The notes below the pieces were generated by a model that ran no database searches, had not been told where the DNA came from, and saw nothing but the letters and a program-made list of their open reading frames with translations. Source: a virus (Duplodnaviria; Heunggongvirae; Uroviricota; Caudoviricetes). From it: a DNA stretch of 64,000 nt. The translations under genes and the position numbers were made by a program. Shown piece after piece: positions 69 to 62,090 of this stretch. The DNA is taken from positions 35,348 through 99,347 of IMG/VR virus record IMGVR_UViG_3300026549_001501. One strand, written 5' to 3'. Within the stretch, counting starts at the first letter, position 1, and every line of letters starts with the position of its first letter.

Positions 69-341
69 TTAATTTCTAGCATTCTTTCTATATTTTATTA
101 TTAATGCGAAAATTATAACAGACAAAATAAATTCAGAGACATACATGATAAACAATTCGGGACGTTTCAACAGTATAGAATAAACCGTACCGCAAGCCGT
201 TGAAAACAGCCATATCGACCACGAGGTAATGCTCAAATCTTTCGAATATTTTGTCTTAATTAGCGTAATAATTTGGGGAATATACCCAATGTAAGCACAT
301 ACGGTTATAATCCCCATTAACGCTGAAAGAATAAAATCCAT
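69..341 (-). CDS. small hydrophobic (membrane) protein, 90 aa
   Basis: ORF with two or three hydrophobic segments. No recognisable motif. Confidence 0.35.
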   Translation of the reverse strand: MDFILSALMGIITVCAYIGYIPQIITLIKTKYSKDLSITSWSIWLFSTACGTVYSILLKRPELFIMYVSEFILSVIIFALIIKYRKNARN

Positions 342-955
342 TATTCTCCGTATTTTTCCTTGATTGCTTCTTTAACCTCTTCTCCCGGCTCAGGAATTTT
401 CATTTCTTCCCTGATTTGCTGAAGTTTATCCTTTATATTATCAGAATCAAAAATATCCGAAATTGCATCCTCAGGTTTGTCGTAGTCTGGATTGAGGATA
501 TCAGTCACTTTCTTGTCAAGTTTCTCCATTGCTGCATTCCACCTGTCGTCGGCATCGTCAGAAAGCTCCTCTACGTCCGCATAGTCTGTTTTTTCCTCGT
601 CAGAAATCTCGTCCCAATTAACGTTCTCCTCCTCAGTAAGCCAAGGAAGGTCAAAATCCTTAAATTTCTGCTCCTGCCAATTGATGAGCTCCCAATCGTC
701 GCTGAGCATATCAGTCTGACTTGCAACCCAACCTGTTAGAATCTTATTGTCGGCAGTTTTCATGCAGATGGTGCCGAGTGCCTTTATTTCACCTCCGTTC
801 TCGTGTGCAATTTCCTTAAGGATAGGATCCTTGCACCATTCTTCCTTTATTACCGTCGCGGGCTTGAGCCATAGGAACATGCCTTTACCGTTCCAACCCC
901 TTCGTAGCACTTTCTCTCCGTGTTTAAGTGCCTCTAATGCTTCACTGAAATTCAT
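341..955 (-). CDS. DUF2829 (Tad2-like) domain protein with long acidic C-terminal tail
   Basis: The N-terminus (MNFSEALEALKHGEKVLRRGWNGKGMFL) matches my recollection of the DUF2829 signature seen in Thoeris anti-defence Tad2 proteins. The C-terminal half is strongly D/E-rich. Confidence 0.45.
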   Translation of the reverse strand: MNFSEALEALKHGEKVLRRGWNGKGMFLWLKPATVIKEEWCKDPILKEIAHENGGEIKALGTICMKTADNKILTGWVASQTDMLSDDWELINWQEQKFKDFDLPWLTEEENVNWDEISDEEKTDYADVEELSDDADDRWNAAMEKLDKKVTDILNPDYDKPEDAISDIFDSDNIKDKLQQIREEMKIPEPGEEVKEAIKEKYGE

Positions 956-977: not shown

Positions 978-2138
978 TTATTTTCTGAACGAACCATCTC
1001 CCGACAGGTTGATAATCAGTTCTGTGTTTTCTCTCATTTCTTCTATTGTCCTGCAGCCAGTATACGACATGCAACTTCTCATATAAGAAGCCATATTGTC
1101 CGCCCACTTAGCGATAGGGTATTCCACAGGAATTGGACGTGCAATTCCTTCAGCCGTAACGTCGCCCTTTCCGCCCGTTTTCTTCTGTGCGAGCTTCGTA
1201 CTCATTCCATAGTAAAGGCGATATGGCTTTCTTTGCGATAGTTTACGGTATGCAACCCAATATTCGTTATCGTCAGTACCCCAATATAAGTCGCTACGCT
1301 CCTTGAGCTCCGCCAACTTCTCTGCATATTCCTCTGCGGGAATCGCATCTGCCATATTGAGGTTGTCTGGGTGAAGGAATACAATTGGCTCACATGCTTC
1401 CTGAGCCTTAGCAAAAATACTACCGCTCATAACAGCCCAAGCGCCAAGTGCAATACACTTCTGAATGTCGTCGAAATTTGAAATTCCTCCGTCGACTATG
1501 ATATTTGTTCTTGATTTTCTGTCATGAGATTGATCCCAATCTTCCTTTTCCATACGAAGCCTGTCTACGAGCGTGGCAGTTGGATAATGCACGCCAACAT
1601 TACAGGACGTAGTACAACGGCTTCCCGTTCCAACACAGGCACGCATAAAGTCTATCTCGTAGTTTTCGTAGAATGCATATGCGAACGGATTTGCGACATT
1701 TCCTGTCATGATAACGATATTGTCGCCGAATATCGCCTTGAGATTTTTACACACTGAATAAAGACACTGCATTGTTCCGTGTGCGATGTCGATACAAATG
1801 AAATGACGTTTATCTTTCTTCATATCGAGATGGTCGGCAAGATAACGAGCCTCAGCCAACGAAAATGAGGCAAACGTCTCTTCGCTAATTTTGATTCGCG
1901 TTTGATAATCTACAGTCCTTGGTACAACACAAAGGAAATTGTTGTCAAGCCATACCTTGTAGTTTTCTTCATTGGTGACAGCCCCCATCGGAGAAACTAT
2001 TACTGGGTAAGCCTTTTTACCGTAGAAGTCAATCATAGGGTCGCATTCAGCCCTGTGCTCAATGTCTGAAACGGGAGCCTGAATAATGTGAATACTTTCA
2101 AGCTCATAACCAACCTGTGTAAGTTTACTTTTCGCCAT
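978..2138 (-). CDS. IMPDH/GMP reductase family protein (GMP reductase-like; no CBS domains)
   Basis: The catalytic-loop-like segment is CVGTGSRCTT. IIVDGGI...MSGSIFA matches the IMPDH/GMPR TIM-barrel phosphate-binding segment. At 392 aa it lacks the CBS insert. The start is trimmed to MAKSKL to avoid overlapping the upstream gene. Confidence 0.55.
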   Translation of the reverse strand: MAKSKLTQVGYELESIHIIQAPVSDIEHRAECDPMIDFYGKKAYPVIVSPMGAVTNEENYKVWLDNNFLCVVPRTVDYQTRIKISEETFASFSLAEARYLADHLDMKKDKRHFICIDIAHGTMQCLYSVCKNLKAIFGDNIVIMTGNVANPFAYAFYENYEIDFMRACVGTGSRCTTSCNVGVHYPTATLVDRLRMEKEDWDQSHDRKSRTNIIVDGGISNFDDIQKCIALGAWAVMSGSIFAKAQEACEPIVFLHPDNLNMADAIPAEEYAEKLAELKERSDLYWGTDDNEYWVAYRKLSQRKPYRLYYGMSTKLAQKKTGGKGDVTAEGIARPIPVEYPIAKWADNMASYMRSCMSYTGCRTIEEMRENTELIINLSGDGSFRK

Positions 2139-2994
2139 TACTAATATAATTTTCAAATTTTGAAATTGTTGTGTTCAAGTCCTCTGTTAGTAGGCTTTGT
2201 ACCTTTTCTCTGTATCCATCAGGAATGCCGTAATATGCGGCGGCAAGGGCGCAAGCCATATCGGCAATAGTATCGCTATCTCCGCCAATCCAAATAGCCT
2301 TTTTGAATACATCGTCGAATGAATCCCCTTCAAGGAATGCGATTATTGCCTCAGGAACCGTAACCTGACAGGTTGCATCGAACTTATGAGAGCCGTGAAT
2401 TTCGTCCACAGTCTTGCTCAAATCATAGCCAAAATTACGCTCTATGTCTTGCTTGAGATATTCTTTGTCGGGGTATCCGCAAAGTGTGCTCCAAATTGCA
2501 TAGCATAATGCCTGTGCACCCTTTATACCCTCTGGGTGATTGTGTGTAACCGCCGCAGACTGTTTAGCCAACTCCATGAGCTCATCGTAACTTTCGGCAA
2601 CACAAGCGCAAGCACTGCAACGCATTGCCGCGCCATTTCCGAATGAATTCATTGGTTCCTTGTTCTTCATAGCAAGCCACTCACGGAAAATGTGCCCATA
2701 TCCTGCGTTTGGATGAGCCTTTCCGTATTTGTCGAGCCTGTCTTTTAAAATCTGTTCTTGATCTTCCGTCGTTCCGTTCTTTCCGTCAACAAGCCATTCT
2801 GCAATGGCGCAACTAAGAACGGTATCGTCAGTAAATCGACTCGGAGAATCGAAACTCAGCTTAATTTCTTGCTTGGTCTTAGCATTGTGCCATTCATAAC
2901 CGCTTCCACAAACGTCTCCGATAATAGCTCCAATTAGCGGGTCAATTGTCTTTGTAACAGTTTTTATTGTTGAAATATTGTCAAATTTTGCCAT
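2125..2994 (-). CDS. ADP-ribosylglycohydrolase family protein
   Basis: It has the N-terminal GAIIGDVCGSGYEW motif (GDAlG-type) and the C-terminal GGDSDTIADMACALAAAYYG motif typical of ARH/DraG hydrolases. Confidence 0.6.
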   Translation of the reverse strand: MAKFDNISTIKTVTKTIDPLIGAIIGDVCGSGYEWHNAKTKQEIKLSFDSPSRFTDDTVLSCAIAEWLVDGKNGTTEDQEQILKDRLDKYGKAHPNAGYGHIFREWLAMKNKEPMNSFGNGAAMRCSACACVAESYDELMELAKQSAAVTHNHPEGIKGAQALCYAIWSTLCGYPDKEYLKQDIERNFGYDLSKTVDEIHGSHKFDATCQVTVPEAIIAFLEGDSFDDVFKKAIWIGGDSDTIADMACALAAAYYGIPDGYREKVQSLLTEDLNTTISKFENYISNGEK

Positions 2995-5481: not shown

Positions 5482-5500
5482 AATATAAAAATTAGAAGTG

Positions 5501-5675
5501 TGCCCACGACAGGATTCGAACCTGTGACCGACGGATTAGCGCGTAAACTACGCTTCGAACGTAAACAGAGCTACATGCATGTACTCAACCCCGCTTTCTC
5601 CCATAATACGCGTGTTCGTCTCGGTGAACAATACCGTATGAAATCCGTTGCTCTATCCAACTGAGCTACGTGGGC
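5501..5675 (-). tRNA. tRNA-Arg(TCT) interrupted by a ~101-nt intervening sequence (about 5540..5640) inside the anticodon, after T34
   Basis: The 5' half (GCCCACG-TAGCTCAGTTGGATAGAGC-ACGGA-TTT) and 3' half (CTAA-TCCGT...ACAGGTTCGAATCCTGT-CGTGGGC) have 7/7 acceptor complementarity. The body closely resembles E. coli tRNA-Arg(UCU). The insert carries a GGGAGAAAG box and a 3'-proximal TACGTTCGAAGCGTA hairpin. Confidence 0.55.
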
Positions 5676-7549: not shown

Positions 7550-8332
7550 TTAATTATTTTTTATGTCATTGATAGTAAGTTTTTTACGGTGAAACCTTTT
7601 ACTATCTTTATTTAATGAGCCAAAATTAGGTGTTAAACTATGGCAATTCGGGCAAAGTAATTGCAGATTTTCAAGTTTGTTGTTTGTGCAATCACCGTCT
7701 ATATGGTGTACTTCTAAAGGTATTTTTCCTGTAGTTTCATTCTTTTTTCCCCACCCGCATTTTTCACATTTGTTATTATGTATTTTTAGAAGATATTTTT
7801 TTATAAACTCAGGTAATTGCCCTCCTGCTCCTCTTGTAAAATTTTCTCCTTGCAGCCATCGTTCAATTTTCTTTTTTCTTTCATATTCTATATGGCAAGT
7901 ATTACTACAAAATTGTCCACGTTTTATTGGTTTCCCGCAATTAGCGCATTTTTTATTGATTTCTTCTTCAATAAGGTTTCCGCCAAGGGACTTAGATATT
8001 TTTATTCTTGTTTCTAAAGAACGCGGCCCTCGTATTACATTGTTATATTTCGCGGCGCAAGAAGAAGAACAAAATTTATTAAACCTTTGTTCATACGTAA
8101 GTTTTTTACCACACGTCTCGCAATATCTCGGTTTTTTTTCGTACTCTTCTCTTGTAATCCTATTTTTATAATACTTTCCGTCTATTCCGGCTTGTTTTTT
8201 AATCTTTTCTATGAAACGCCAAGATGCACCATTATTCTTTCTGCCAAAATATCTTATTACTTCAAGTTCTGAATTACATTGTTCAAATGCTTTTAATATC
8301 TCCGCAGTTGTTATGCTATTTTTTTCTTTCAT
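7550..8332 (-). CDS. HNH homing endonuclease with repeated Zn-finger modules
   Basis: C-terminal HNH motif (VHHIDGDCTNN...LCPNCH). There are three KFCSSSCAAKYNN-type Cys modules. It sits between tRNA genes. Confidence 0.7.
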   Translation of the reverse strand: MKEKNSITTAEILKAFEQCNSELEVIRYFGRKNNGASWRFIEKIKKQAGIDGKYYKNRITREEYEKKPRYCETCGKKLTYEQRFNKFCSSSCAAKYNNVIRGPRSLETRIKISKSLGGNLIEEEINKKCANCGKPIKRGQFCSNTCHIEYERKKKIERWLQGENFTRGAGGQLPEFIKKYLLKIHNNKCEKCGWGKKNETTGKIPLEVHHIDGDCTNNKLENLQLLCPNCHSLTPNFGSLNKDSKRFHRKKLTINDIKNN

Positions 8333-9585: not shown

Positions 9586-9972
9586 TTAACTAACTTTCGT
9601 TATAAAAATCACCTCAGGGTGTTCCCCGAAAACTGTGTGAGTAACATTGCAAAGCCAAACGGTTAACGGAAATTTGCTATCTTCATTAAGAGTCTTATCC
9701 ATTATTTCATTGAATAAAAATCCATTTAATGAATATGTTGCTCCGTCATCGTCATGATCAAGAATTGTCAACTTTAATAAATATTGTTTCGGCTCGACAA
9801 TACTTAGGACAAACCCCGTTTCCATTTCAACTTCAACAGAATCTTTTCCATTTGATAGCAATTCACACATTTCGTCAGCACCCAAAACCATCTCATTATC
9901 TTCAAGACTATGCTCGGGAACGTCGGCATACCAACGCCCGTCTTGCTTGAAAAATTTAAGTTTTGTTTTCAT
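9586..9972 (-). CDS. hypothetical protein, 128 aa
   Basis: ORF downstream of, and apparently co-oriented with, the endonuclease gene. Confidence 0.45.
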   Translation of the reverse strand: MKTKLKFFKQDGRWYADVPEHSLEDNEMVLGADEMCELLSNGKDSVEVEMETGFVLSIVEPKQYLLKLTILDHDDDGATYSLNGFLFNEIMDKTLNEDSKFPLTVWLCNVTHTVFGEHPEVIFITKVS

Positions 9973-10820
9973 AATAAGTTATTATAAAAAGTCAAAAACT
10001 CGTTTATCTTTTCCCGCATTTTCTGTCGTCCCGCATCGTTATTTATTGTATTCCATTCAATTCGATAAATTGTGTACCCATGTTCTCTAAGGAAACAATC
10101 TCTTTCGGCGTCATGCGTTTGTCTACGTTTATGCTGTCTACCGTCAATTTCTAAATCTATCTTCTTCCCGTTTCTTTCAATTAAAAAATCAAGAAAGTAC
10201 TTTTTTGTTGAAAAATCCTCTTTTATAAAAGGTATTTTATTGTTTATTAAAACTTTTTCCCAAAATATCTCCGGGTATGAGTGAATGTTTCTTGTTTGCC
10301 ATCCGGAAAACGTCCCTTCTTTTATCCTTTCGTATGCCTTCTCTCTAATTTTATTTTTTACTTCTTCACTGTTATGTGCACATTGTTGACAACAATACTG
10401 GGCATTCTTATTTACTGAGGTAAATACTTTTCCGCAATGTTTGCAAACTATCTCATACTCTTTTTTACCAACTTGTCCATTCTTCAGTAATGAATGTTGT
10501 TGCAACGCCTCAGAAATCTTTTGCTTTGTCTCTTCTGATAAAGTTCTCTTTCGGTTGTTGTATTTAGCAGCACAAGATGAACTACAAAATTTTCTATTCC
10601 CGTGTATTACCTTACCGCATTGAAGGCAGCGCTTCTCTTTGTTTTGTTGTATTATATTTACAATATCAATATTGTACTCACGAGAGCAGTATTCAATTAT
10701 TTTCTTTTGTACGTTACCATTTGTGTATTTTACACCATAAATGATATTAGCGCATTCAGTAAATGTCTTACACTTCAAAAGTTCGTCTAGTTTTGTTTTA
10801 TTTTCCATAAAAATTGCCAT
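9969..10820 (-). CDS. homing-endonuclease-like protein: Zn-finger modules plus C-terminal Vsr-like (DUF559, PD-(D/E)xK) nuclease domain
   Basis: KFCSSSCAAKYNN modules as in 7550..8332. The C-terminus (FLDFLIERNGKKIDLEIDGRQH...DAERDCFLREHGYTIYRIEW) matches the Vsr/DUF559 pattern. Confidence 0.6.
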   Translation of the reverse strand: MAIFMENKTKLDELLKCKTFTECANIIYGVKYTNGNVQKKIIEYCSREYNIDIVNIIQQNKEKRCLQCGKVIHGNRKFCSSSCAAKYNNRKRTLSEETKQKISEALQQHSLLKNGQVGKKEYEIVCKHCGKVFTSVNKNAQYCCQQCAHNSEEVKNKIREKAYERIKEGTFSGWQTRNIHSYPEIFWEKVLINNKIPFIKEDFSTKKYFLDFLIERNGKKIDLEIDGRQHKRRQTHDAERDCFLREHGYTIYRIEWNTINNDAGRQKMREKINEFLTFYNNLL

Positions 10821-10875
10821 ATACTATAAATATAGCAATAAATCGAAAAATGTCAAGTCGAACCAAGTTTTTTTG

Positions 10876-11029
10876 TCGGGGTGACAGGACTCGGACCTGC
10901 GGCCTGATGGTCGAGCGACACGTAAGATTCGAACTTACGAAACTTCCAATATTGTGTCGCTTCACCAATTTCTCAGCCATTGGTTAACTGTAACCAAACC
11001 ACCCGCTCTACCAACTGAGCTACACCCCG
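10876..11029 (-). tRNA. tRNA (probably Pro(TGG); Glu(CTC) not excluded) interrupted by a ~81-nt insert in the anticodon loop
   Basis: 5' half CGGGGTG-TAGCTCAGTTGGTAGAGC-G-GGTGG. 3' half CCATC-AGGCC-GCAGGTCCGAGTCCTGT-CACCCCG-A. Acceptor 7/7. The insert contains hairpin TTGGTTA/TAACCAA and a T-loop-like hairpin CGTAAG-TTCGAAT-CTTACG. Confidence 0.5.
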
Positions 11030-11295: not shown

Positions 11296-11476
11296 GTTTT
11301 CTTCTACCAAGCAATTTCTTGCCCGTTTACCTTTAATTTATCACATTTACCCCGCCTGAGCCTTGTGTGAAAAATTTTTTTCATTTTCTTCCTGAATTTT
11401 AGCCATTGCTTTCCTTTGCTTCCGGTAAATTCTTCAGGATACTCTTTTAATGAATACATAAATTTTAATGTTTTGC

Positions 11477-11745
11477 GGAGAGGGAGGGATTCGAACCCCC
11501 GGGCCCGTGAAGGCCAACGGTTTTCCTTGCTACATCGCTTTCACATTGTAGTCTGGACTTTCTCTTCGTCCGTTCTGGACGTCTCCTGTAAAGTCTCTAC
11601 ACACTGTCTTTAAACATTGGCTCGGTATTACCATCAGCATTACATGTTAAGGCTTCACCGAATTAGGGAGATTCTACTTTTATCATTCCTGATAAAGCAC
11701 TCGAATTAACAAGACCGCCGCAATCGACCACTCTGCCACCTCTCC
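11477..11745 (-). tRNA. tRNA-Ser(TGA) containing a 184-nt group I intron (11527..11710) between U34 and G35
   Basis: The exons give a class II tRNA (GGAGAGG-TG-GCAGAGTGGTCGATTGC...GCGGT-CTT|GAAA-ACCGT, long variable arm, T-arm). The intron carries ACCGAGCCAA and GTGTAGAGACT, which match 9 of 9 and 11 of 11 nt of my recollection of the Azoarcus tRNA-Ile group I intron. The 5' exon ends in U and the intron ends in G. Confidence 0.6.
11527..11710 (-). other. compact group I intron (IC3-like) in tRNA-Ser(TGA)
   Basis: See the tRNA entry above. The P7-region motif GUGUAGAGACU and the CCGAGCCAA motif are shared with the 599-nt intron in tRNA-Leu(TAA) at 54927..55525. Confidence 0.55.
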
Positions 11746-13288: not shown

Positions 13289-13374
13289 CGGAGAGCAGTG
13301 GGATCGAACCACATCCGAAAATATGGACGCACAACTTAGCAGGTTGCCGCTGTCACCGTTCAGCATTACTCTCC
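13289..13374 (-). tRNA. tRNA-Ser(GCT)
   Basis: Class II tRNA. Acceptor GGAGAGT/GCTCTCC, anticodon stem GCAAC/GTTGT, loop CTGCTAA, long variable arm. Confidence 0.65.
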
Positions 13375-14148
13375 TTTATAATAAAAATTTTTCCAATCTT
13401 TATATTCTTTTTCTATACTTAAGCTTCGTAAGAAATCATAAGAATAAAGTTCTTTTTTTGTGTGTAAAATTCTATGATGATTTGGACACACAACTATTAA
13501 ATTTCCATTTTCATCACTGCCTCCATCTTTTTTGGGTACAATGTGATGCACATCGCAAGTTGATTCATTCCAACCACAAATAGCACATTTACAATTTGCT
13601 TTTTTTAAAATTTTTATCATGGTTGTTTTTGGCAGTTCCAAAATTGATTCAACCTTATCAATATATTTTCTACCTATGCTTTTTTTACATTTCTTACAAA
13701 GGCAATTTCTTCCTTCTTTTACTTTCCTTCTAGAAAAAAATTCTTCTCCACAGTTCTCACAAATGTAGCGATATAGAACCTTTTCTCTTGGATTACTCTT
13801 GTTAAATTCTTTAAGGGATTTAGACGTCTTTTCTCTATGCGCAACTGTAATTACACGTTCTTTATTATTGAACTTTGCAGCGCAGCTTTTTGAACAAAAT
13901 TTATCTTGCCCTTTTTTTAACTTTTTTCCGCAGCAAGTGCAAAACTTAGAAGGATGTTGCCTCTCTTTGTATACTGAAAAATCAAACCCTACAAGTTCTC
14001 CAACTTTCTTTAGAATCTTATTATGCTCAGTATTATCAGATACACCAAAATACTCAAAGATTTGTTTCTTACTCTTGAAAGAGTCAAAAAGCTCAAAGTA
14101 TTTTTTTATATCTTCTTTACTGTTTATTTCAATATTAAATTTTTTCAT
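13366..14148 (-). CDS. HNH homing endonuclease with Zn-finger modules
   Basis: KFCSKSCAAKFNN-type module. C-terminal HNH motif CDVHHIVPKKDGGSDENGNLIVVCPNHH. Confidence 0.7.
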   Translation of the reverse strand: MKKFNIEINSKEDIKKYFELFDSFKSKKQIFEYFGVSDNTEHNKILKKVGELVGFDFSVYKERQHPSKFCTCCGKKLKKGQDKFCSKSCAAKFNNKERVITVAHREKTSKSLKEFNKSNPREKVLYRYICENCGEEFFSRRKVKEGRNCLCKKCKKSIGRKYIDKVESILELPKTTMIKILKKANCKCAICGWNESTCDVHHIVPKKDGGSDENGNLIVVCPNHHRILHTKKELYSYDFLRSLSIEKEYKDWKNFYYKGE

Positions 14149-14213
14149 TGTTTTACCCTTTTCTAATAAATATAAGAAAAGGTGGAAAAGTAAAGGTTTA
14201 AACTTGAAAAAAG

Positions 14214-14302
14214 TGGGAGAGAGTGGATTCGAACCACCAATGTTTACCCTGTGGGAACGGATTTACAGTCCGTTACGACACCACCATCGTCGCTGCTCTC
14301 CC
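14214..14302 (-). tRNA. tRNA-Tyr(GTA)
   Basis: Class II tRNA. Acceptor GGGAGAG/CTCTCCC, anticodon loop CTGTAAA, long variable arm, T-loop TTCGAAT. Confidence 0.7.
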
Positions 14303-14790: not shown

Positions 14791-14797
14791 AATTAAG

Positions 14798-15202
14798 TGG
14801 AGATGACGCGACTCGAACGCGTGTCTTTCAATGTGAAAAAATGCTTTCTACATGCTTATTCACTGTTAGTCAATTTTAAACGGTACGGTAGCGAAGAACC
14901 TTATCCATTCTACATCCATTTTGGAATCTTATTCTTTGGACAAATGGAAATCCTCAGAAAGTACCTCAGTGTCGATGATATCCGTATTGACGAACCCACC
15001 TCGGTTCAGAAATCCGTCACGGATAATGGCCCTCCCGCTGCCTTGGCGGAAATGGGTTAAGCAAATCTACTCTGTAGATTAAGCAGCCATTCTGAAAGTG
15101 TTGTTGCCAACTATTGTTTGGAAACTGAGATCAAAGGGCAAATTTCCGACGCCCTGCATGCTTGCACTCTCCCTTCAATGAAGTCAAAGCCAAAACATCC
15201 CC
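14798..15202 (-). ncRNA. ssrA: tmRNA (ssrA), phage-encoded. Predicted tag peptide (A)GNNTFRMAA
   Basis: The 5' end (GGGGATGTTTTGGCTTTGAC) parallels E. coli GGGGCTGATTCTGGATTCGAC. The 3' tRNA-like end is GACACGCGTTCGAGTCGCGTCATCTCC-A. The acceptor helix has a G3-U70 pair (alanine identity). Internal AAUAGUU|GGC AAC AAC ACU UUC AGA AUG GCU GCU UAA mirrors the E. coli AAUAGUC|GCA resume context and ends in -AA plus a stop. It sits immediately downstream of a TATATTTG promoter. Confidence 0.7.
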
Positions 15203-18729: not shown

Positions 18730-18962
18730 AAATTTTACAGGCACGTAAACGAAATGCCCTCAGACTTCCCAATAGTTTACATTTACCGTCTTCAAACTAT
18801 TATGTGGCTCCTTCACACCTACGAAAAACCGACTTTATCAACTATCCATGGTATAGTATATAGGCAATTTGTCAACGCACCACTGCCAAAACCGATGGTT
18901 CTCTTATTACGCTACACCAAAAAGAGCGGGTCTGTTTACTTTATTAATTCCATTTTTTTTCG

Positions 18963-19138
18963 TGGGAACGCACAGATTCGAACTGTGGACCCCCTGCTTG
19001 TGCTGGTAAATTACGCTTCGGACGTAAATTGATGCAACAATTGATTTGCAATTCACTTTCTCCCGTTTTACCAAATATCCGTCACAGTGGATAATTCTGT
19101 AGAAGGCAGGTGCTCTAAACCAGCTGAGCTACGTTCCC
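18963..19138 (-). tRNA. tRNA-Val (probably CAC anticodon) interrupted by a ~101-nt insert in the anticodon loop
   Basis: 5' half GGGAACG-TAGCTCAGCTGGTTTAGAGC-A-CCTGC-CT. 3' half CACAA-GCAGG-GGGTC-CACAGTTCGAATCTGTG-CGTTCCC-A. Acceptor 7/7. The insert carries ACGGGAGAAAG and TACGTCCGAAGCGTA followed by 9 nt, homologous to the 5540..5640 insert. Confidence 0.55.
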
Positions 19139-19781: not shown

Positions 19782-19934
19782 GTACTCCCGCTGTGAATCG
19801 AACACAGATTTAGGGTTTAGTCGGTATTTTACGCTTCGGACGTATACAGTTCTGCATTCTCCCATATTACCGAAGCCCGTTTCGGTGGGCTACTCCGTAT
19901 GGAAACCCTCGTTCTATCCGTTGAACTACGGAAG
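19782..19934 (-). tRNA. tRNA-Arg (probably CCT anticodon) interrupted by a ~80-nt insert
   Basis: 5' half GCTTCCG-TA-GTTCAACGGATAGAAC-G-AGGGT-TTC. 3' half CTAA-ACCCT-AAAT-CTGTGTTCGATTCACAG-CGGGAGT-A. The insert begins CATACGG, as in the 5540..5640 insert, and contains TATGGGAGAATG and TACGTCCGAAGCGTA followed by 9 nt. Confidence 0.5.
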
Positions 19935-19936
19935 CA

Positions 19937-54892: not shown

Positions 54893-55576
54893 GCCATGGT
54901 GGCGGAAAGGTAGACGCGAGGGACTTTAACGGTAGACGAACTTACACTGATAACTTACACTTGGGGATTACAGACTGAGACACCCTGTATACGGGTAAGC
55001 GTTCGCCTATAATTTGAGTGCACCAAGGGAAACCTTGGATGTAGAACCTCCCTAATTCGGTGAAAGCTATAGTTTGGATTTACAGGAATATATCGGATAA
55101 TCGTCTAAATTAGTTGGTGCATTGCCAACAGTAGTACATAGTTAACTGAATTTCAGTAATGATAGCAGTCGTTTAGAATCTATGTGTAAGAAGACAGTCC
55201 AAATATGCTAATACCGAGCCAATGTCACTAATAGAACAGTTCCTAAGAAGTGAACTTAATTGAAACGTTTATCGTTAATGTAATCTATTAGACAGTGTGT
55301 AGAGACGAGATACAGGAGGAACCTAAGTTGAAATGAATTGTTGATGTGGAAGGATATTAACAAGCATTCGCAAAATGCTTCGTTACATCTATAATGTTCA
55401 ACAATTTTACTTGCGCAAGATTTCAATATGGTTAAGATACAGTCCAGACCACAAACAAATAAATAAAAGTGAAAGTGAACGCTAATAGGCGTATGTTATT
55501 TGGTAACGAAAGTTATAGTGGTATGAAAATCCCTTGGGCCGAAGGGCCCGTGTGGGTTCGAGTCCCACCCGTGGCA
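54893..55576 (+). tRNA. tRNA-Leu(TAA) interrupted by a 599-nt ORF-less group I intron (54927..55525) between U34 and A35
   Basis: Exon 1 is GCCATGG-TG-GCGGAAAGGTAGACGC-G-AGGGA-CTT. Exon 2 is AAAA-TCCCT, a long variable arm, GTGGGTTCGAGTCCCAC and CCGTGGC-A. The intron contains AATACCGAGCCAATGT and GACAGTGTGTAGAGAC, the same motifs as the Ser(TGA) intron. It ends in G, and the 5' exon ends in U. Confidence 0.7.
54927..55525 (+). other. group I intron (no ORF of 60 aa or more) in tRNA-Leu(TAA) at the canonical U34/A35 position
   Basis: See the tRNA entry above. The insertion site is the same as the ancient cyanobacterial and plastid tRNA-Leu(UAA) intron. Confidence 0.6.
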
Positions 55577-55585
55577 CATGGTAAT

Positions 55586-55659: not shown

Positions 55660-56432
55660 CAAAAAAATCCAAAAGCGTCTGCACAATGTTAGTAGGTGGC
55701 GTTGGACAATATCGAAATGGAAAGCCGTGCAGGGTAAGTAAAGAGTAGAGACGATACTTCGAAAAATCGTATTGGTGTAGCGGTAGCACGGCCCCCGTGA
55801 AGGGGGTAGGCAGTGGGTTCGAATCCCCTATCACGAACTAATGAATTCTTTGAAACAGGATTAAACCTCACCTTTTATTGTAGGGACGGGAATTAAGGTA
55901 CTAAACTCAATCATAAGATAAGGAGTGTTAATCCAAAGTACCGTACTTTAGATTCGTGGGCAGGTTGGCTAGTATAGTAAACCACGATGCAATAAGTTTC
56001 AGGTTTCAATCAATTTCATCGTTTTGGAAGGGTATCGTAAACCTTTTCCGCATCAAGGCAAGCGATGCGTTACTGACCGTATTGGAATGCCCCATAAGGT
56101 AGGAGGGGTTTTTCGGGATTGAAACCCGACATTCTGAAATCGGAGGAGTCGATTGCACAGGTTTGCAGAATTAGCGTATGGTGATGCGAACCCACTCGGG
56201 GCCCTATGAGTGAGACCGTAATGCAGTTTATCGGTAGGAGTAGGGAGACATGCGTGAGAGAACAGCCGAAGGCGCTTGGGGATGGCGTTAGTCCTAAGGG
56301 TTGCCAAGAGTAAGCTTAGTATCAAGAGGGAACTTGCAAGAGTTACTGTGACTTGGGGGCGTTTGTCCGCCTTTGTGCAAGGGAAGTTATTTACGCCAAT
56401 GATGGAAGATAGTGATTATATGACTATGAGCC

Positions 56433-61723: not shown

Positions 61724-62026
61724 ATGATAGTACTATTACTTATTTTAATCATTTCCGTTATAATTGCTTCTTTGAAATTATTCGAGAGGCAAGAAGAAAT
61801 TAAAATCCATCTTATCAACACAGAAACCAGAAAGGTTTATTGCGTAAAGAACGATAAGGATGGAAAATATACGCGTGGAAAAGTCGGATACACAATTTCG
61901 AAAGTTGAATTCGGAAAGGTTCTCGTTAGCTTTGGGAAAGACGAGGCTTATTGGATACCCGTCGATGAAATAAGTATTATCGAAGAAAAAAATACGACAA
62001 ATAGCGCCGGAATGGGACAGTGGTGA
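61724..62026 (+). CDS. hypothetical protein, 100 aa
   Basis: ORF. Its 3' end overlaps the tRNA start by about 20 nt. Confidence 0.35.
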   Translation: MIVLLLILIISVIIASLKLFERQEEIKIHLINTETRKVYCVKNDKDGKYTRGKVGYTISKVEFGKVLVSFGKDEAYWIPVDEISIIEEKNTTNSAGMGQW

Positions 62027-62090
62027 CTCCATCGGTTTCGTAATCCGACTCACTTATGTGGCACGCAGGTTCGAATCCTGCTTCCGGCTC
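62007..62090 (+). tRNA. tRNA, class II-like architecture (long variable arm), anticodon uncertain (loop TTCGTAA gives CGT with a U-U closing pair)
   Basis: Acceptor GCCGGAA/TTCCGGC is 7/7 and the T-arm GCAGG-TTCGAAT-CCTGC is canonical. The anticodon stem has only 4 clean bp. Confidence 0.5.

Follow-up and report, generated by a model that had tools for sequence, protein, structure and literature searches.

We identified a group I intron of 185 nt in the anticodon loop of a class II tRNA-Ser(UGA) gene, within a stretch of viral DNA of 64,000 nt (hereafter, the window). Judged from its sequence and from those of its relatives, the insert belongs with the compact group I introns of the tRNA-Leu(UAA)/Azoarcus type, here called IC3-like by resemblance. 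It is very probably a functional, self-splicing intron of the compact bacterial/phage tRNA type, housed in the sole tRNA-Ser(UGA) gene seen in the array.

With introns allowed, ARAGORN reports a tRNA-Ser(tga) gene at c[11475,11745] and places a 185-nt intron after its position 35; run on the window with its default settings, the same program missed this locus and all other interrupted tRNAs. The gene is laid out as follows:

11476..11745, minus strand: interrupted tRNA-Ser(UGA) gene, class II, with a long variable arm (ARAGORN with introns; discriminator G at 11476; CCA not encoded)
11711..11745, minus strand: 5' exon, 35 nt, ending ...GGUCUU, with U34 as the -1 nucleotide (direct reading and ARAGORN)
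11526..11710, minus strand: group I intron, 185 nt, between anticodon positions 34 and 35 (RF00028 and model R1)
11476..11525, minus strand: 3' exon, 50 nt, beginning with GAAAACCG (direct reading and ARAGORN)

On the minus strand, the intron begins with GUUAAUUCGAG and ends with GCAAG. Only with the boundary between U34 and G35 is the 5' splice site preceded by U and the intron closed by G, and direct reading bears out both of these predicted letters while correcting the predicted length of 184 nt to 185 nt (11710..11526). When the exons are joined in silico, ARAGORN returns a canonical class II tRNA-Ser(UGA) with a 7-nt anticodon loop, CUUGAAA, in agreement with the proposed split loop CUU|GAAA. 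The 64-kb window contains no intron-less tRNA-Ser(UGA) gene. Two motifs had been described as common to this insert and to an intron in a tRNA-Leu gene of the window. The first, CCGAGCCAA, has exactly two copies in the window, at 11617-11625(-) and 55214-55222(+), and is indeed common to both; the second, GTGTAGAGACT, located at 11592-11602(-), is not, the tRNA-Leu copy matching at 10 of 11 nt (GTGTAGAGACG). The proposed match of both motifs to the Azoarcus intron proved accurate, as they are present in the tRNA-Ile row Aol6.Ile2.5Ug of the alignment of Williams 2020.

The group I assignment was examined with two covariance models. In a 401-nt search, the Rfam model RF00028 matched positions 11541-11720 over 253 of its 253 model positions with 34.5 bits and E = 2.7e-7, which by our own arithmetic rescales to about 4e-5 for the whole window. 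The original prediction had named this model as a check: the local E-value speaks for it, but the score stays under the gathering score of 50, and an Rfam scan of the whole window at gathering thresholds returned tRNAs and the tmRNA only, with no intron. According to Williams 2020 (bioRxiv 10.1101/2020.01.27.920355), the RF00028 seed is non-bacterial, and matches down to 18-20 bits were taken in that study when they lay inside split tRNAs.

Because RF00028 is generic, an independent test was built. Pattern scans of IMG/VR yielded 143 loci, from which ARAGORN combined with a filter for U-1 and omegaG retained 64 phage tRNA group I introns. The covariance model R1 was derived from 22 distinct short phage introns located in tRNA-Leu(UAA), Arg(UCU), Met and Thr(UGU) genes, with no tRNA-Ser intron included. 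Over P1-P9a, P7 and P10, 98.6% of the cells of this 22-intron alignment are paired and 31 pairs show changes on both sides; none of 500 shuffles was as good, and controls in which the structure was slid had 30-42% of cells paired. On the window, R1 matched 11518-11718(-) with 124 bits and E = 4.7e-32, over model positions 1-218 of 218. The core helices P3-P4-P6 and P7-P3-P8, with the P3/P7 pseudoknot, are all present and paired in the Ser intron, whose core strands J6/7-P7, P7' and P4 agree with the family consensus at every base. Since neither P7 strand varies in the 27 members of the family, the support for P7 is of the conservation kind only. A U.G wobble sits at the 5' splice site of all five short Ser introns described below and of 22/22 other introns, and omegaG is in place, the Ser intron ending in ...CAAG. 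The RF00028 E-value, the R1 score and the covariation thus uphold the core of the original prediction, namely that the insert in tRNA-Ser(UGA) is a group I intron and a homologue of both the 599-nt tRNA-Leu intron of the window and the Azoarcus-type tRNA introns.

The R1 alignment and pair counts give the following helix anatomy:

11700..11705, minus strand: internal guide sequence UUCGAG (P1 and P10 pairs intact in 5/5 Ser introns)
11677..11697, minus strand: P2 hairpin, 7 bp plus a closing C-G, with a GGAA tetraloop (compensatory changes in 7/8 pairs among the Ser introns)
11622..11671, minus strand: P3 5' strand, J3/4, P4, J4/5, extended P5/P5a and P4 3' strand (pair counts, R1 alignment)
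11582..11621, minus strand: P6/P6a, J6/7, P7 5' strand (GAGACU within GUGUAGAGACU), J7/3 and P3 3' strand (pair counts)
11555..11580, minus strand: P8, 4 bp with loop AGAAC, J8/7 (GAAGAGAA) and P7 3' strand (AGUCC) (R1 alignment, pair counts)
11526..11551, minus strand: single P9.0/P9 hairpin with a GAAA tetraloop, then CAAG to omegaG 11526 (R1 alignment, pair counts)

Among the closest known systems are the IC3 introns found in tRNA-Leu(UAA) genes from cyanobacteria, plastids and phages ('Leu.3Ug' in Williams 2020), which occupy the same 34/35 site (CUU|N) and share with the Ser intron the helices P1-P9.0 and the core elements AAUUCGGUGAA, CCGAGCCAA, GUGUAGAGACU and AGUCCAGAC. Unlike them, the Ser intron has the guide UUCGAG instead of UUUGAG and the L2 loop GGAA instead of GAAA. 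The R1 alignment further shows that P9a, the second of the terminal hairpins, is missing from the Ser intron, that P8 has lost its inner half, and that P5 is longer than in the Leu introns by a 14-nt insertion; the remaining P8 is reduced to GUCC-AGAAC-GGAC, without the 11-nt receptor. Typical family members have GAAA in L2, a P8 receptor CCUAAA/UAUGG as in Azoarcus, and two GNRA-capped terminal hairpins, whereas in all five Ser introns the P8 receptor CCUAAG/UAUGG is absent and L2 is GGAA. The small size of the Ser intron, 185 nt against 191-215 nt for the Leu introns, follows from its single terminal hairpin and its 4-bp, receptor-less P8. In exchange for these lost elements, it has the longer P5, whose internal loop CCUUAAC/GAUGG appears to resemble the 11-nt tetraloop receptor. 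A relocation of the tetraloop-receptor clamp to P5, with the GAAA loop on P9, is a plausible rewiring. P1 is just 3-4 bp long, and the window copy has mismatches at one P5a pair (U.C) and one P9 position (A.A).

The same tRNA-Ser(UGA) site (CUU|G...G|GAAAACC) is interrupted in seven other phage contigs, by introns of 186-722 nt:

L128 (on a 344,746-bp contig) and L139: Ser introns of 186 nt
L138: Ser intron of 192 nt
L147: Ser intron of 193 nt
L130: Ser intron of 339 nt
L141: Ser intron of 547 nt
L003 (on a 363,317-bp contig): Ser intron of 722 nt

The five short Ser introns have 80-87% of the 185 positions in common with the window copy. Within this subfamily of five sequences, 97.3% of cells are paired and 20 pairs show changes on both sides, against 34-40% of cells paired in slid controls; compensated pairs fall in P2 (7/8), P3 (3/5), P8 (3/4) and P9 (4/8). 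Such a compensatory pattern is of the kind that selection on a working RNA fold brings about, which argues against a decayed relic.

From established group I intron chemistry, we infer how splicing would proceed. Guide GAG and exon end CUU would form P1 and set the U.G wobble at the 5' splice site, which would be attacked by an external guanosine held in P7. The terminal G (11526) would next occupy the G site, while guide UUC would hold the 3' exon GAA through P10, so that the exons would be joined and the loop CUUGAAA restored.

Three other accounts of the insert were weighed against this one. Many group I introns need protein help, and the intron could be genuine and yet depend in vivo on a host or phage protein, such as a chaperone or a maturase-like factor, for its folding or splicing. 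The missing P9a, the GGAA in place of GAAA in L2, and the P8 cut to 4 bp without its 11-nt receptor lend this some weight; since P8 does not offer L2 its usual receptor, folding might need help. We nevertheless hold such a dependence to be unlikely: there is no ORF inside the intron, the CCUUAAC/GAUGG loop in P5 together with the GAAA loop of P9 suggests that the clamp was moved and not lost, and Azoarcus-type relatives self-splice robustly (PMC13168695). An insert that is never removed, in a tRNA-Ser(UGA) pseudogene whose role is filled by the host tRNA-Ser, is very unlikely. It could explain the Rfam score under threshold and the few mismatches in P5a and P9 of the window copy; however, the exons form a perfect cloverleaf, the catalytic-core positions are all conserved, the guide still fits both exons, and five diverged copies (80-87% identical) keep their helices through compensatory changes. 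Finally, the view that the insert is unrelated and resembles group I introns through a coincidence of two short motifs, conceivable in that CCGAGCCAA alone reaches at least two matches in 10 of 100 window shuffles, is refuted by the full-length R1 match, whose E-value excludes chance likeness, and by covariation within the family.

The guide sequence also connects this intron to others. In the Ser intron, P1 joins GAG to the exon CUU, the U.G wobble falling at the splice site, and P10 joins UUC to the 3' exon GAA. Guides follow the exons: UUUGAG in Leu (CUU|AAA), UACGAG in Thr (CUU|GUA), UAGGAG in Arg (CUU|CUA) and UUCGAG in Ser (CUU|GAA), so that P10 and exon identity vary together in these four isotypes, with 3/3 pairs changed on both sides. 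The window itself offers such a pair, owing to a sister group I intron:

54927..55525, plus strand: sister group I intron, 599 nt, at the same position of tRNA-Leu(UAA) (gene 54893-55577)

Reading of the sequence agrees with the tRNA-Leu(UAA) assignment and the bounds first given for this intron. It contains no ORF of more than 56 aa and has large insertions in P1, P5, P6, P8 and P9. R1 matches its two halves at 44.3 and 53.6 bits, and RF00028 gives no match to it at E <= 10, probably on account of these large insertions. The ARAGORN call of 'Ser(tga), 597 nt' at this gene is a mis-parse of tRNA-Leu(UAA), and two further calls, 'Ile gat, 96 nt' and 'Phe gaa, 1029 nt', are artefacts in which two adjacent tRNAs were fused.

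Between the Leu intron (AAUUUGAG) and the Ser intron (AAUUCGAG) of the window, the guide region differs by one base, matching A35 versus G35 in the exon. The two introns also have in common CCCUAAUUCGG and CCAAUGU...ACAGUGUGUAGAGAC, marks that ordinary phage Leu introns do not carry. L147 additionally contains a tRNA-Leu(UAG) copy, with guide CUUGAG for CUU|AGG. Given these common marks and matched guides, one huge-phage intron lineage seems to have spread among anticodon loops beginning with CUU, and now seems to occupy tRNA-Leu(UAA), tRNA-Leu(UAG) and tRNA-Ser(UGA), whose 5' exons all end in CUU. Transfer among these genes may have taken place by reverse splicing or by recombination, and its direction is likewise a matter of inference. 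One tentative scenario, possible though doubtful, is that a single U-to-C substitution in the guide retargeted a tRNA-Leu(UAA) intron from CUU|AAAA to CUU|GAAA, after which P9a and the L2-P8 receptor were lost and the tetraloop receptor was relocated to P5; the Ser introns would in that case be a naturally minimised ribozyme lineage.

With respect to size, the original prediction had put the intron at or below the lower limit of natural group I introns. 'At' is right and 'below' is wrong, the published bacterial minimum being 184 bp: in a 2026 survey, the 333 group I introns of bacterial tRNAs spanned 184-894 bp (PMC13011429). No explicit record for the smallest group I intron was found in the literature. 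The window Ser intron is the shortest of the 64 retrieved phage tRNA introns (185 nt, followed by 186, 186 and 191 nt; median 200 nt). The exceptional compactness claimed for it does not hold, since 32 of the 64 measure 200 nt or less and two sister Ser introns measure 186 nt.

Bacterial tRNA intron classes were raised from 4 to 21 by Williams 2020, whose seed Mun3.Ser.3Ug is a 213-nt tRNA-Ser intron at this very position (CUUG...CGAG). This Ser.3Ug intron has the same isotype, position, CUU|G...CGAG P1, U-1 and omegaG as the window intron, and 132 of 185 positions are shared (about 71%, an identity inflated by the gap-tolerant global alignment). It differs in keeping the P8 receptor and both terminal hairpins, the phage-borne intron being 28 nt shorter. 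The Azoarcus tRNA-Ile(CAU) intron, of 205 nt (PMC13168695), is likewise compact and without peripheral domains, with identical CCGAGCCAA and GUGUAGAGACU, a 3-bp exon-guide P1 and GNRA loops on P2 and P9. In contrast to the Ser intron, it lies at anticodon-loop position 5 in the Williams 0-7 scheme (position 3 for Ser), is GC-rich, is 20 nt longer and makes the L2 contact with the 11-nt receptor in P8. Docking of L9 onto P5 is also known for the Azoarcus intron. Taken with our own 64-intron sample, Williams 2020, PMC13011429 and PMC12880540 place the kind, position, isotype and size range of the Ser intron already on record. New here is that Ser introns form a lineage in phages, with an architecture pruned in a particular way.

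The window holds about 30 tRNA genes and one tmRNA, and its proteins include a RecD2-like helicase, DnaJ, a Tad2-like anti-Thoeris protein and an ADP-ribosylglycohydrolase. Features of the array near the Ser gene include:

7550-8332, minus strand: endonuclease-like ORF, HNH plus treble clef, free-standing between tRNA genes
9969-10820, minus strand: endonuclease-like ORF, DUF559/restriction-endonuclease-like, about 650 bp downstream of the Ser gene
13366-14148, minus strand: endonuclease-like ORF, HNH plus zinc ribbon, free-standing between tRNA genes
14795-15202, minus strand: tmRNA (119.7 bits) with tag peptide GNNTFRMAA, lying amid the tRNA genes of the array

The interrupted tRNA genes may be targets of the three endonuclease-like ORFs, which could encode homing endonucleases. 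A comparable setting is reported for the huge gut 'Jug' phages, whose genomes contain a mean of 18.5 group I introns, averaging about 206 nt, and whose splicing was observed in metatranscriptomes (PMC12880540). There too, small and numerous introns occur per huge-phage genome, with free-standing homing-endonuclease genes alongside; the 'Jug' introns differ in being reported in protein-coding genes, and tRNA is mentioned 0 times in PMC12880540.

Among GenBank phages, the best relative of the Ser locus is the tRNA-Leu intron of the 735-kb phage LR756501 (67.6% identity), and a 24-kb stretch of the window gave no near match. The tRNA array, the gene content and this GenBank comparison fit an uncultured huge phage. 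The Tad2-like (Thoeris anti-defence 2) protein at 341-955(-) and the ADP-ribosylglycohydrolase at 2125-2994(-) adjoin the tRNA array, which is consistent with a phage counter-defence region. Three unusual tRNA calls in the window are an 85-nt Thr(CGU) with a long extra arm at 62006-62090(+), a 90-nt Tyr(GUA) at 14213-14302(-), and a weak tRNA-like match at 55767-55837(+), with 29.6 bits just above the gathering score.

At least three, and probably four, other tRNA genes of the window contain in their anticodon loops small structured inserts of 81-101 nt that are not group I introns, being too small and following no omegaG rule:

5500-5675, minus strand, window: small insert in tRNA
18962-19138, minus strand, window: small insert in tRNA
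19782-19935, minus strand, window: small insert in tRNA
10875-11029, minus strand, window: variant small insert, also in a tRNA anticodon loop
L145 9634-9789; L146 8761-8916 and 9763-9915; L147 1352-1532: relatives
L187 239-392 and 1915-2068; L233 844-996 and 5585-5750; L258 1766-1924: relatives

Twelve copies carrying the core signature, of 79-105 nt, were gathered from the window and from phage/metagenome contigs, and all twelve lie in tRNA anticodon loops. The host tRNAs include Met/Ile2 CAU, Arg UCU, Arg CCU and others, with some anticodons depending on where the junction is placed. For L146 8761-8916 and others, one precursor gives either Thr UGU (CUU + GUAA) or Arg UCU (CUUCU + AA); for such phages, the output of ARAGORN alone is therefore insufficient to draw up tRNA inventories.

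The 5' part of these inserts consists of a leader UAC-R-G followed by a 4-5-bp hairpin with the loop A-C-Y-G-N-R-A-C. A closing stem of 5-8 bp then encloses GGGAGAA, a small variable hairpin and a T-arm-like hairpin, UACG-UYCGAAG-CGUA, and is followed in most copies by a tail ending in AC. In 12/12 copies, the hairpin and closing stem are fully paired despite differing sequences, and a leader triplet is complementary to a triplet of the hairpin loop (CAG/CUG, CGG/CCG or CUG/CAG), which points to a pseudoknot adjoining the 5' junction. The L258 copy was transcribed by hand with one extra adenosine in the hairpin loop, which leaves its stems and triplets intact.

An Rfam search at E <= 10 over 1.1 kb containing two of the copies returned no family, and no description of such inserts was found in the literature. 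Pattern scans yielded five real members among 120 metagenome loci, the others being mostly chance matches, and none among 120 bacterial or archaeal genome loci. Inspection by eye revealed no bulge-helix-bulge sites in the inserts. Two schemes were tried and rejected: pairing between leader and 5' exon in the manner of a group I guide was inconsistent across members, and a fixed cleavage site relative to the conserved UACRG gave non-canonical loops in two members. These inserts are a candidate new kind of tRNA intron, whose removal could be self-catalysed or could involve tRNA-processing enzymes plus a ligase.

Related or analogous anticodon-loop inserts of 69-117 nt were observed at L128 4-179, L138 488-673, L145 6497-6697 and L040 3076-3217. 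They have a genuine-looking T arm (e.g. GGUGG-UUCGAUU-CCACC) inside an acceptor-like closing stem, so that each resembles a small tRNA-like domain set within a tRNA; those of L128 and L138 also have a 5' hairpin, with the loop ACCGAAAC or ACUGUGAC.

The small inserts are more unusual than the Ser group I intron, which does not overturn current understanding. Should the 185-nt RNA prove able to splice itself without help, it would become the shortest natural group I intron with demonstrated self-splicing, and it would also provide a natural example of a tertiary contact for a GGAA loop (the L2 sequence of the Ser introns). As a natural variant without two peripheral elements of the Azoarcus type, it would make a ready minimal scaffold for ribozyme work, with four diverged sister sequences available to guide engineering. 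Since default tRNA finders and the Rfam gathering score miss this gene, tRNA-Ser(UGA), tRNA-Leu(UAA) and several other tRNAs would go uncounted, and inferences on codon usage or recoding in huge phages would be skewed accordingly. The Leu(UAA), Leu(UAG) and Ser(UGA) copies, with their single-base guide adaptations, illustrate how group I introns may hop between similar anticodon loops.
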